Source: Klebsiella phage K64-1
Length of the DNA: 64,000 nucleotides
Sequence record: AB897757.1
Strand: one strand, 5' to 3'
Position numbers and translations under genes: made by a program
Notes under the pieces: generated by a model
The model's input: the letters and a program-made list of their open reading frames with translations, nothing else
Told to the model about the DNA's origin: nothing
Database searches by the model: none
Part shown: piece after piece, positions 37,663 to 40,318 of the stretch
Position numbering within the stretch: the first letter of the stretch is position 1
Layout of the letters: the number at the start of each line of letters is the position of its first letter

Positions 37663-40318
37663 CGATGATTATGATTATGATTTAGATGATGTGTATTCTA
37701 AAATAAAAAAGCCTGGTGTAAAAATCAAATACACCGAATATGAAGAAAAGGAACTTGCTAAATGTGCAGCAGATCCAATTTATTTCATGGAAAACTATTT
37801 TTATATTGTCAGTAAAGGTGGTGAAATATTATTTAAACCTTATGAATATCAAAAAGAAATGGTACGTAACTTTCAAGGATATACTAACAACGTAATGCTT
37901 ACTGCGAGACAAATGGGTAAGCTATTAATTAATAGTACGCCAATTTTAACACCAACTGGATTTTCAACTATAGGTGAATTAAAAGTAGGGGATATTATAT
38001 ATGGTGCTGATGGAAAGAAGACCAAGATTTCATACATTACACCTGATACGCCAGATATGGTATTATATGATATAAAATTTAGTAATGGGGAAACTATTAC
38101 TGCGTGTGAAGATCATTTATGGAATATAAGTACAACAGATTGGCAACGTTGGGGAAATAAAACAAAAACCCTAAGTACTAAAGAACTTATTCCATTGTTT
38201 AACCAGTATCAATCGCGATCAAAACCAGCAAGAATGTTTATTGAACATTGTGAAACTATTGAGTTTGATGAAACATCCACTAATTTTGATCCATATATGG
38301 TTGGTTTATGGTTAGGTGATGGTGATACCAAATCTAATAGGTTAACTCATTCTAAAGATGATTATCTATTTTATAAATCATATTTTAATGATGAAATATC
38401 TGATTATTTAAAAGATGAAAGAAAAAATGATTGTGGATATTCTAAAATTAATTTTGATTTTAAACAATTTATTCGTGATGGAAAAAAATATATACCCGAT
38501 GAATATATTTTTACATCTGTAGAAAATAGATTAAAACTTTTACAAGGTTTGATGGATAGTGACGGTACAGCAGAACGAACTGGAATGTATCTTCAATTTT
38601 TTAATAACAATAAAGATATAATTGATTCATTTAGATTGATATTAAGTACTCTTGGTATAAAAAGTACAGTAGTTGAAAAACAAAAAACATATACTTATAA
38701 AGGTGAAAAGATAAAATCACCAAATATTTCGTATATGGTTCAATTTAAAACTACAAAATATGATATGTTTATGCTTCCAAGAAAATTAGAAAAGCAATAC
38801 TTAAAAGAATATGTTCATCCTAAAAATAATAGAATTTATATTGAAAGTATAACATTATCAGAATCTACTGAAATGGGTCGTTGTTTACAAGTTGACAATG
38901 AAGACCATTTATTCTTATGTGGTAAAACACTAATACCTACTCATAATACTACTGTAGCAGCAGCATATATATTGTGGTATGCGATGTTTAATCCTACTAA
39001 AACAGTACTGTTACTTGGTAACGTATTGAGTACTGCAAAAGAGATTATGGAACGTATTCAATTCGCATATGAATTATGTCCTGATTTTATACGTGATGGT
39101 GTAGAAAAATATAACGTAACTGAAGTTCGTTTTGAAAATAAATCTCGAATTATTGCTCGTGCAACAACACCAAGTGCTGCACGTGGTTTATCTGTAAACT
39201 TATTATACTTAGATGAATTTGCGTTCGTTCAGGAAAGTTTCCAAGCGGATTTTTGGTCAGCAGTATCGCCAACATTAGCATCATCTAATGGTCGTTGTAT
39301 TATTACCAGTACACCAAACACTGAATATGACCAGTTCGCAACTATATGGAATGAATCACAACGTTTTAGTACTGATGATGGTATTGAATTAGATCCAACA
39401 GGTGCTGGTATAAATGATTTTAAAGGCATTATGGTACGTTGGGACTCACACCCTGATCGTACTCCAGAATGGGCTGCAAAAGAAGAATACAAAATAGGTA
39501 CTTCCAGATTTAAGCGTGAATATAACTGTGAATTCGTAACTTATCAGGAAACACTGATTGATGGTATTAAATTATCAGAAATTAAACACAGAACTGTTCG
39601 TGAACCTATAAAGAGAACTGATGATGTGTACTGGTATAAACCTATTGAATATGGAATGACATATGTACTTGGTTTAGACCCAAGTGGTGGTACAGGTGGT
39701 GACGATGCTGCAATTCAGGTATATGAATTACCAACACTACGACAAGTAGCAGAATGGAAACACAACAAAATGCTCATTACTGATCAAGTAAAATTAATGA
39801 GAAAAATTTTAATGCAAATTGCATATGAAATGCAAGAATTGGGTGCCAAAAATATAGAAGATCATCTATTTTGGACTATTGAAAACAACGGTATTGGAGA
39901 AAGTGGTATATTGGCTATTCAAACACTGGGTATTGAAAATTTCCCAGGCACTATGGTTAATGAACCAAGAAGAACCAGAACTGGTAGAATTCGTAAAGGT
40001 ATGACTACTTCAAAATCAACAAAGAAAACTGCCAATTTACATATGCAAAAATTAATGGAAACATATCGAATGGAAGTTGCAAGTCCTAATTTACATAGAC
40101 AATTGACTGATTATATCAGACGTGGTACTGACTTTTTATTTGAAGCAAAAGCCGGTTGTCGTGATGATTTGGTTAGTGCAACACTTCTTGTTGTGAGATT
40201 AATTGATATTATATCCAAATTCGAAGATAATACCGCTGAAGTAATTGGTGAAAGTTTAGATGATTATGATGAAGAATTTTTTGAACCACTTGGATATATG
40301 ATTACATATACAAGATAA
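37649..40318 (+). CDS. 17: terminase large subunit gp17, interrupted by an in-frame intein (aa 92-433)
   Basis: KPYEYQKEM...TARQMGK | intein | [16 protein letters not shown] aligns with T4 gp17 HPYQKEM...[21 protein letters not shown]. Downstream DEFAF (Walker B) and a nuclease-domain region follow. Confidence 0.9.
37922..38947 (+). mobile_element. intein (342 aa) with LAGLIDADG homing endonuclease domain, inserted in the terminase P-loop; class-3-like (WCT) signature, N-terminal Leu
   Basis: Starts [14 protein letters not shown] directly after GK and ends ...LIPTHN before Thr+1. LAGLIDADG motifs [11 protein letters not shown] and [11 protein letters not shown]. Block [13 protein letters not shown] has Trp at position 12. 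Block [13 protein letters not shown] has Cys at position 4. Block G is THN. Confidence 0.75.

Follow-up and report, generated by a model that had tools for sequence, protein, structure and literature searches.

What kind of element can split the ATP-binding loop of an essential packaging enzyme, and can it still leave that enzyme whole if it begins with a leucine? The question is raised by a stretch of 64,000 nucleotides (nt) from Klebsiella phage K64-1 (record AB897757.1; hereafter, the window), in which the gene for the terminase large subunit (TerL; gene terL) is interrupted within its Walker A motif. An earlier reading of the DNA, made without database searches (the sequence-only reading), had proposed a class 3-like intein with LAGLIDADG motifs and had treated its first residue, Leu1, as an unusual variant. 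Our answer, to which we assign a probability of about 0.9, is that the insert, seated at the P-loop Lys/Thr site of a RaK2-like terL (a slash marks a junction here and in the short sequences below), is a functional class 3 intein that houses a LAGLIDADG homing endonuclease. We base this on the anatomy and boundaries of the insert, its homology to proven class 3 inteins, the conservation of its catalytic residues and a presence/absence polymorphism among related phages.

The insert spans exactly 1026 nt (342 codons), and the codons at its two junctions were read from the DNA:

37649-40318, + strand: TerL open reading frame (ORF), 889 amino acids, from the ORF list
37649-37921, + strand: N-extein of TerL, 91 amino acids, ending with the first half of Walker A (...TARQMGK)
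37919-37921, + strand: codon AAG, Lys-1
37922-38947, + strand: class 3 intein, 342 amino acids, in frame, with no stop, ending LIPTHN
37922-37924, + strand: codon CTA, Leu1
38945-38947, + strand: codon AAT, Asn342
38948-38950, + strand: codon ACT, Thr+1
38948-40318, + strand: C-extein of TerL, 456 amino acids plus stop, which completes Walker A (GK/TT) and carries the remainder of the ATPase domain as well as the nuclease domain

All motifs that the sequence-only reading had quoted for this insert are found where it had placed them. Both junctions are fixed by an allele that has no insert. In Salmonella phage PHA46, TerL is uninterrupted, such that ...TARQMGK is followed directly by the start of the C-extein (terL of this intein-less type reads ...CGTCAGATGGGTAAAACAACAGTTGCGGCT... 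at the site). At the DNA level, PHA46 (GGTAAA/ACAACAGTTGCG) differs at this point from the near-identical Klebsiella phage fENko-Kae01 (GGTAAA/GCT...CATAAT/ACAACAGTTGCG), in which an insert of 987 nt lies exactly between AAA (Lys) and ACA (Thr). Since no residue is repeated across the junctions, the boundary cannot slide. The insertion point claimed earlier, exactly between the Walker A Lys and Thr, is thus confirmed by PHA46. We also built a profile hidden Markov model (HMM) from 46 homologs, leaving out the window sequence, and searched it against the 324 six-frame ORFs of the window; the TerL ORF was the sole match (E 7e-103), in an alignment that sets Leu2 at model position 2 and ends the model at Asn342. 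Such a profile alignment had been named as a test of the N-boundary, and it did not move the start onto a Ser, Cys or Thr; together with the PHA46 allele, it places Leu at the first position of the intein.

The N-extein has 99.6% nt identity to that of RaK2 and aligns with T4 gp17 as far as SRQLGK, while the C-extein has 99.8% nt identity to that of RaK2 and, in a Pfam scan of the TerL ORF, matches Terminase_6N (residues 434-642, E 4e-8) in a hit that begins directly after the insert. Removal of the insert in silico yielded a 547-residue protein that aligns with the T4 gp17 structures 3EZK, 3CPE and 2O0H (E 5e-37), with RQMGKTT opposite RQLGKTT (Walker A stretch, ARQMGKTTVAAAY / RQMGKTTVAAAY), which bears out the proposed alignment with gp17 on both sides of the insert. 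Thus, the predicted spliced product is a proper T4-type large terminase (Terminase_6N), with gp17-homologous ATPase and nuclease domains and a contiguous Walker A. The terL region (37649-40318) showed 99.1% identity to RCIP0023, 98.3-98.8% to phiKp_21, KP13-7, W12-3 and Muenster, and 93.3% to RaK2; by these identities, it is a match to the RaK2-like Klebsiella jumbo phages of the genus Alcyoneusvirus.

The insert itself has the parts of a two-domain intein:

37922-37960, + strand: block A, with Leu1 at position 1 and no Cys, Ser or Thr nucleophile there
38087-38122, + strand: block B, with Cys62 (B:7, 38105-38107), His65 (B:10, 38114-38116) and Trp67 (B:12, 38120-38122), the W of the Trp-Cys-Thr (WCT) triplet
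38249-38821, + strand: LAGLIDADG homing-endonuclease domain, about residues 110-300 of the intein, inserted in the HINT fold (from Pfam and Foldseek)
38297-38329, + strand: first LAGLIDADG motif, with catalytic Asp133 in GDG
38537-38569, + strand: second LAGLIDADG motif, with catalytic Asp214 in SDG
38873-38923, + strand: block F, with Cys321 (F:4, TGT at 38882-38884), the C of WCT and the predicted first nucleophile
38930-38950, + strand: block G (LIPTHN/T), with Thr340 (G:5, the T of WCT), His341 and Asn342, followed by Thr+1 of the C-extein

What defines class 3 inteins is a first residue that is not a nucleophile (Tori et al. 2010, PMC2807308), and their published signature is such a residue co-varying with the Trp-Cys-Thr triplet and with Ser or Thr at +1 (PMC2807308; PMC3196547). 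The insert has a residue 1 that is not Cys, Ser or Thr, His at B:10 and Trp at B:12, Cys at F:4, Thr at G:5, a terminal Asn and Thr+1. Moreover, its residues 2-342 align by BLASTP with residues 2-341 of the Bethlehem prototype intein (E 3e-39), with the catalytic residues in register; with Trp67, Cys321 and Thr340-His341-Asn342 in place, the class 3 (WCT) reading proposed earlier gains direct support from this match. Among solved structures, the best phmmer matches were also class 3 inteins, MchDnaB1 (6RIX/6RIY, E 1e-15) and Msm DnaBi1 (6BS8, E 3.5e-13). By this BLASTP and phmmer homology to verified members, we assign the insert to the single class 3 lineage. The earlier placement of the block F Cys at position 4 holds by alignment, since Cys321 pairs with Cys320 of the Bethlehem intein and with the block F Cys of 6RIX/6BS8, but in the string quoted for block F the Cys was the second letter; Cys321 is F:4 with the standard block start two residues upstream (MGRC).

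Between blocks B and F, the insert has the layout of a LAGLIDADG intein, a HINT fold with an inserted two-motif domain that keeps both acidic catalytic residues. The two LAGLIDADG motifs noticed earlier are present, with Asp133 and Asp214, and Pfam detects LAGLIDADG_3 above its cutoff (E 3e-8) as well as Hom_end inside the insert. The region of the second motif aligns by phmmer with PI-SceI residues 295-382, and the first motif is one that we take to resemble PI-SceI block C. An AlphaFold2 model of the intein was predicted with high confidence scores (predicted local distance difference test, pLDDT, 94.1; predicted template modeling score, pTM, 0.92) as an intein/homing endonuclease fold. Foldseek searches with this model returned PI-SceI at the top (E 1e-17), then TliVMA, PI-PfuI and class 3 mini-inteins, and also I-DmoI.

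We asked how Leu1 compares with the first residue of related inteins. The family is very large: a homolog search returned 17,066 cluster representatives with E <= 1e-3, of which 967 reached E <= 1e-30. We surveyed 271 full-length homologous intein domains from 219 proteins, identified by alignment and HMM. The catalytic residues are nearly invariant across this set: His B:10 is found in all 271 domains, Trp B:12 in 263, Cys F:4 in 270, Thr G:5 in 269 and Asn G:7 in 270, with THN at block G in 260; the first LAGLIDADG catalytic Asp is found in 245 and the second in 262. The flanking residues are also constrained, with Lys at -1 in 204 and either Thr (149) or Ser (103) at +1 in 252, Cys accounting for 18. 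Position B:7, which is Thr in standard inteins, is Asp in most of this family (156/271).

Residue 1, which had to be extrapolated from the first aligned residue of block A because hmmalign left column A1 in an insert state, is highly variable: Ala in 148 domains, Pro in 25, Gly in 24, Ser in 22, Leu in 11, Gln in 10, Met in 9, Cys in 7, Asp in 5, Glu in 5 and His, Asn, Phe, Lys and Arg in one each. Leu1 (about 4%) recurs in the distant TerL-type hosts P0122 (ARQMGK/LLDVETPIITPN, 47% identity) and P0130. Close relatives that carry an intein at this position begin it with Ala (RaK2, fENko-Kae01 and JNE01), Lys (EJP2 and P0012) or Met (P0001), while Leu1 is found in the window phage and six other isolates, all with the CTA codon. 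Since residue 1 provides no nucleophile, little constraint is expected there, as the variable pattern among relatives shows. The Bethlehem prototype likewise still splices, less cleanly, with P1A, P1S or P1C (PMC2807308). Thus, by the family alignment, Leu1 is a recurrent minority state that is unremarkable for class 3, and the earlier view of it as an unusual variant is not borne out.

Is the intein functional? Besides the window phage, six database records carry the Leu1 allele, which makes seven independent isolates. Their origins include China, the USA, South Korea, Japan and Israel, and one record gives none; the frame is open and the splicing residues are kept in all seven. Moreover, codon differences among the Leu1 alleles are more often synonymous than nonsynonymous, from 9/5 up to 16/10. 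We infer splicing with high confidence, because TerL is essential and an insert between Lys and Thr is incompatible with ATP binding.

The route that we propose takes its steps from the established chemistry of the family. The thiol of Cys321, aided by His65 and Trp67, would attack the Lys-1/Leu1 peptide bond, transferring the N-extein to Cys321 as a branched thioester. The N-extein would then be handed to the hydroxyl of Thr+1, after which cyclisation of Asn342, aided by His341, would release the intein. Finally, an O-to-N acyl shift would join Lys to Thr by a peptide bond, giving back ARQMGKTT and with it a TerL able to bind ATP. Leu would be tolerated at residue 1, as are Ala, Gly, Pro, Gln, Met and Lys, because that residue supplies no nucleophile.

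The evidence for mobility comes from comparison of exteins and inteins. In DNA, the N-exteins of PHA46 and fENko-Kae01 are 100% identical and their C-exteins 99.6%, and the two phages differ by the presence of the 987-nt intein; the N-extein value was computed directly, since MAFFT misplaced the short PHA46 N-extein in the intein gap. The window and RaK2 have exteins that are 99.6-99.8% identical in DNA, whereas their inteins are only 82% identical and mosaic: identity falls to 60-72% over the initial 190 nt and near 38279-38458, but is 96-99% at 38549-38818. The mosaic stretches are the following:

37922-38550, window: intein stretch mosaic relative to RaK2
38819-38908, window: intein stretch mosaic relative to RaK2

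A mosaic intein within near-identical exteins argues for recombination between intein variants, independent of the host gene. We propose that the endonuclease, with Asp133 and Asp214, would cut intein-less terL alleles during co-infection and that repair would copy the element in. Such endonuclease-driven homing would explain why the element is patchy and mosaic across related jumbo phages; for homing, and for site-specific cutting of intein-less alleles, these comparisons are indirect evidence.

We considered whether the P-loop intein, instead of being purely selfish, might have been taken over as a conditional switch that gates DNA packaging after translation. Splicing could be gated by redox, metal or temperature, for example via Cys321 and the nearby Cys62, with Leu1 tuning the rate, or with oxidation or a bound metal at these two cysteines stopping it reversibly, and with TerL becoming ATP-competent only under suitable intracellular conditions. 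The precursor, in which Walker A is split, cannot bind ATP; Cys occupies B:7 here and in 34/271 homologs; and related class 3 DnaB inteins are reported to be stress-responsive (PMC6195587). We nevertheless consider a gate very improbable, since intein-less alleles work equally well in sister phages (PHA46), an argument that the element is dispensable and selfish, and residue 1 is free to vary (L/K/M/A) among the closest relatives, as expected of a neutral position.

It is very improbable, in our estimate, that the intein splices by a class 2-like route, with Thr+1 directly attacking the Lys-Leu amide and Cys321 playing a structural or assisting role. The N-terminal nucleophile is absent here, as it is in class 2 (KlbA) inteins, but the insert carries the complete WCT triplet, which co-varies with class 3 chemistry and whose Cys is absolutely required in the prototype (PMC2807308). 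Furthermore, the homology to the prototype runs end to end, Cys F:4 is kept in 270/271 homologs, and class 2 consists of KlbA inteins only, without WCT (PMC3196547). With the full triplet present and TerL as the host, we rejected assignment to class 2 itself.

Less probable still is the idea that the insert is a dead intein, a non-splicing insertion or an assembly artefact, with the Leu1 codon as a sign of decay. Arthrobacter does have an inactive class 3-like intein (Arth_1007), but it lacks Cys F:4 (PMC3196547), whereas the splicing residues here are all intact and the ORF is open. The same allele, moreover, is found in seven independently isolated, plaque-forming phages. TerL is essential, the search of the window's 324 six-frame ORFs showed no second intein or TerL-like ORF, and 342 residues between the Walker A Lys and Thr are incompatible with ATP binding. 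A misplaced N-boundary, with a class 1 intein beginning at a neighbouring Ser, Thr or Cys, has a negligible probability, since despite Ser5 and Thr6 near the proposed start, the PHA46 allele reads GK/TT without extra residues, the profile HMM and the Bethlehem alignment both set residue 2 at Leu2, and Lys stands at -1 in the same register in 204/271 homologs; a class 1 start at these residues is ruled out on those three grounds, and a standard class 1 intein is rejected with Leu1 at position 1 and the boundary immovable.

Several observations weigh against a functional class 3 intein with an active endonuclease. First, we infer splicing, the block F branched intermediate and endonuclease activity for this particular intein from homology. 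Second, the bulky Leu1 is a minority residue (about 4%) that could slow splicing, and substitutions of residue 1 in the prototype cut splicing and raised side reactions (PMC2807308). Third, B:7 is Cys62, as in the 34/271 homologs noted above, and not the commonest residue, Asp; it is possible that Cys62 takes part in a disulfide or a metal site. Fourth, one Leu1 isolate, phiKp_21, has the substitution D133Y in its first LAGLIDADG motif (GDG to GYG):

L008:697-699 (phiKp_21), equivalent to window 38318-38320: D133Y, with all splicing residues intact

This change suggests that the homing endonuclease has been inactivated in the phiKp_21 lineage, and implies that the endonuclease is not under uniform selection; it fits the usual decay of an endonuclease once its intein is fixed in a population.

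We compared the element with known systems. The 2010 description of class 3 inteins placed them in DnaB, RecG, SNF2 and the large terminases of phages, for the most part at the P-loop of an ATPase (PMC2807308), and recent actinophage surveys report hundreds of them, almost all in TerL and Cas4 exonuclease genes (bioRxiv 10.1101/2025.01.02.630785). Among the closest known systems is the experimentally defined class 3 prototype from mycobacteriophage Bethlehem, the 'DnaB' intein MP-Be DnaB (Tori et al. 2010, PMC2807308), which is similar in length (341 versus 342 residues), has HINT and LAGLIDADG domains, resides in a phage gene, and has His65, Trp67, Cys320/321, Thr339/340, His340/341, Asn341/342 and Thr+1 in register. 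The two differ in that they share 26% identity, residue 1 is Pro there and Leu here, B:7 is Ser there and Cys here, and the insertion site is ...VSQDQ/T there and Walker A GK/T here. In locating the prototype by its published junctions (VSQDQ/P...N/TKNTF), we found it in Bethlehem gp11 (L018:7260-9971), a 903-residue protein that GenBank names 'hypothetical protein', and found it absent from the annotated DnaB-like helicase, gp62, and from the right arm of the genome. The gp11 gene lies directly upstream of the portal gene, which is the usual position of the large terminase.

The mycobacteriophage TerL1-a inteins share the insertion point, lying between the invariant Walker A Lys and Thr of a large terminase, a position that Kelley et al. 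(2016, PMC5050341) call the 'classic' site for P-loop inteins. According to the published description on which this comparison rests, their hosts are Terminase_1 TerL proteins of actinophages, unlike the T4-type (Terminase_6N) TerL of an enterobacterial jumbo phage considered here; the mycobacteriophage inteins of that survey include class 3 members with the conserved WCT triplet. MchDnaB1 (6RIX/6RIY), which also sits in a P-loop context (SVGK/A...; PMC7664689), and Msm DnaBi1 (6BS8) are the best matches among solved structures by sequence, and the aligned blocks of these class 3 mini-inteins match ours (block B, AAHQW opposite EDHLW; blocks F and G, RCVEVDN..HLYLAG..MVPTHN), but they are bacterial DnaB mini-inteins that have no endonuclease domain and begin with Ala1. 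When the model is compared as a whole, its best match by structure is PI-SceI, the yeast VMA1 intein (Foldseek E 1e-17, TM 0.69), which shares the two-domain HINT and LAGLIDADG layout and the GDG and SDG catalytic Asp motifs. Unlike our intein, it is of class 1, with Cys1 and Cys+1, no WCT, an extra DNA-recognition region and an identity of about 14%.

The locus itself is already in print. Hint and LAGLIDADG domains in the large terminases of RaK2 and K64-1 were reported in 2017 (Buttimer et al., PMC5259590), from domain matches only and with no class or boundaries. The RaK2 intein occupies the identical locus in the same phage group, with exteins 99.6-99.8% identical in DNA, but it starts AISNN (Ala1) and, as described above, is mosaic relative to the window at 82% DNA identity. 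Our literature search found no explicit class 3 assignment, exact boundaries or Leu1 allele for the RaK2-like phage group. The element is therefore of a known kind, at a known site, and its class, boundaries and Leu1 are annotation detail. The weight that the sequence-only reading had given to a Leu1 intein in the P-loop was thus overstated, considering that Lys/Thr is the classic site (PMC5050341) and that the locus had been reported (PMC5259590).

What remains is of practical use. Most database records name this gene 'hypothetical protein', or 'terminase large subunit' without mention of an intein, whereas mature TerL is predicted to have 547 residues rather than 889. TerL is a common marker in phage phylogenies, for which the intein is best removed first, and the exact boundaries are useful for that purpose; together with the class, they are also useful to anyone expressing this terminase. 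The allele is a further natural example of the tolerance of class 3 inteins for a large hydrophobic residue 1, and the intein and its endonuclease could be mined as parts for protein engineering or genome editing, although many equivalents exist. Beyond correct annotation, the finding matters little.

The genes at the locus are, in order, an exonuclease/RNase H gene, two small ORFs of unknown function, terL, a gene for a virion structural protein and a gene for a single-stranded DNA-binding protein. The ORF directly upstream of terL (36982-37662, + strand; 226 amino acids, phrog_27915) overlaps the terL start and has no known function. A P-loop-like stretch in this ORF pairs with TerL ARQMGKTT in BLASTP, at an E of 0.65 that is not significant, and the ORF could be either a degenerate ATPase-like partner or a chance resemblance. 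A promoter and terminator scan and a tRNA scan revealed nothing relevant, and the ORF list holds no ORF of at least 60 amino acids on the opposite strand inside the intein.

In the course of comparing related phages, we noted that terL is annotated as two overlapping ORFs in many Asteriusvirus jumbo phages of E. coli. Their DNA reads CAG ATG C GGA AAA ACA ACC, in which the Met and Gly codons of Walker A are separated by an additional C. This base lies 7 nt upstream of the point at which the intein inserts:

L003:3985-4010, Escherichia phage vB_Ec-M-J: extra C in terL, found also in ph0011 (L013), CMSTMSU (L015) and Turkey5 (L016)

In the 0 frame, translation proceeds through M-R-K-N-N-R-C to a stop after about 25 codons, while the +1 frame restores G-K-T-T-V-A-A-A. 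The extra C is common to 9-10 genomes (at least 99.7% identity), to Turkey5 (89%, with many synonymous differences) and to ph0011, which bears an intein; JNE01, EJP2, PHA46 and the window (ATG GGT AAG, 37913-37921) lack it. Since the extra C is kept in diverged genomes, whether or not they bear the intein, a +1 shift would be needed to make TerL in these Asteriusvirus phages, and the site has the look of conserved +1 recoding or bypass (AUG CGG, with a rare Arg codon) in an essential gene. Our literature search found no paper on the extra C in Asteriusvirus terL.

The survey of homologs also revealed, in some metagenomic relatives, inteins that abut one another with no extein residues between them. 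In P0223 (1399 amino acids), two homologous class 3 inteins stand back to back (156-508 and 509-844), with the junctions GVGSGK/FQPLDA...VTHN/CTTEDT...VTHN/TYIS. In P0046 (574 amino acids), a class 3 intein is followed by a Cys-initiated segment that ends ...IMSN and has a sub-threshold match to Pfam Intein_splicing, and then by another start, CIDGDS.... P0010, P0011, P0015-P0019, P0021 and P0026 are also listed as proteins with abutting inteins. In such an arrangement, the upstream intein would find its +1 nucleophile in the Cys1 of the intein that follows it. Two or three homologous class 3 inteins at different sites are found in 49 of the 219 surveyed proteins.

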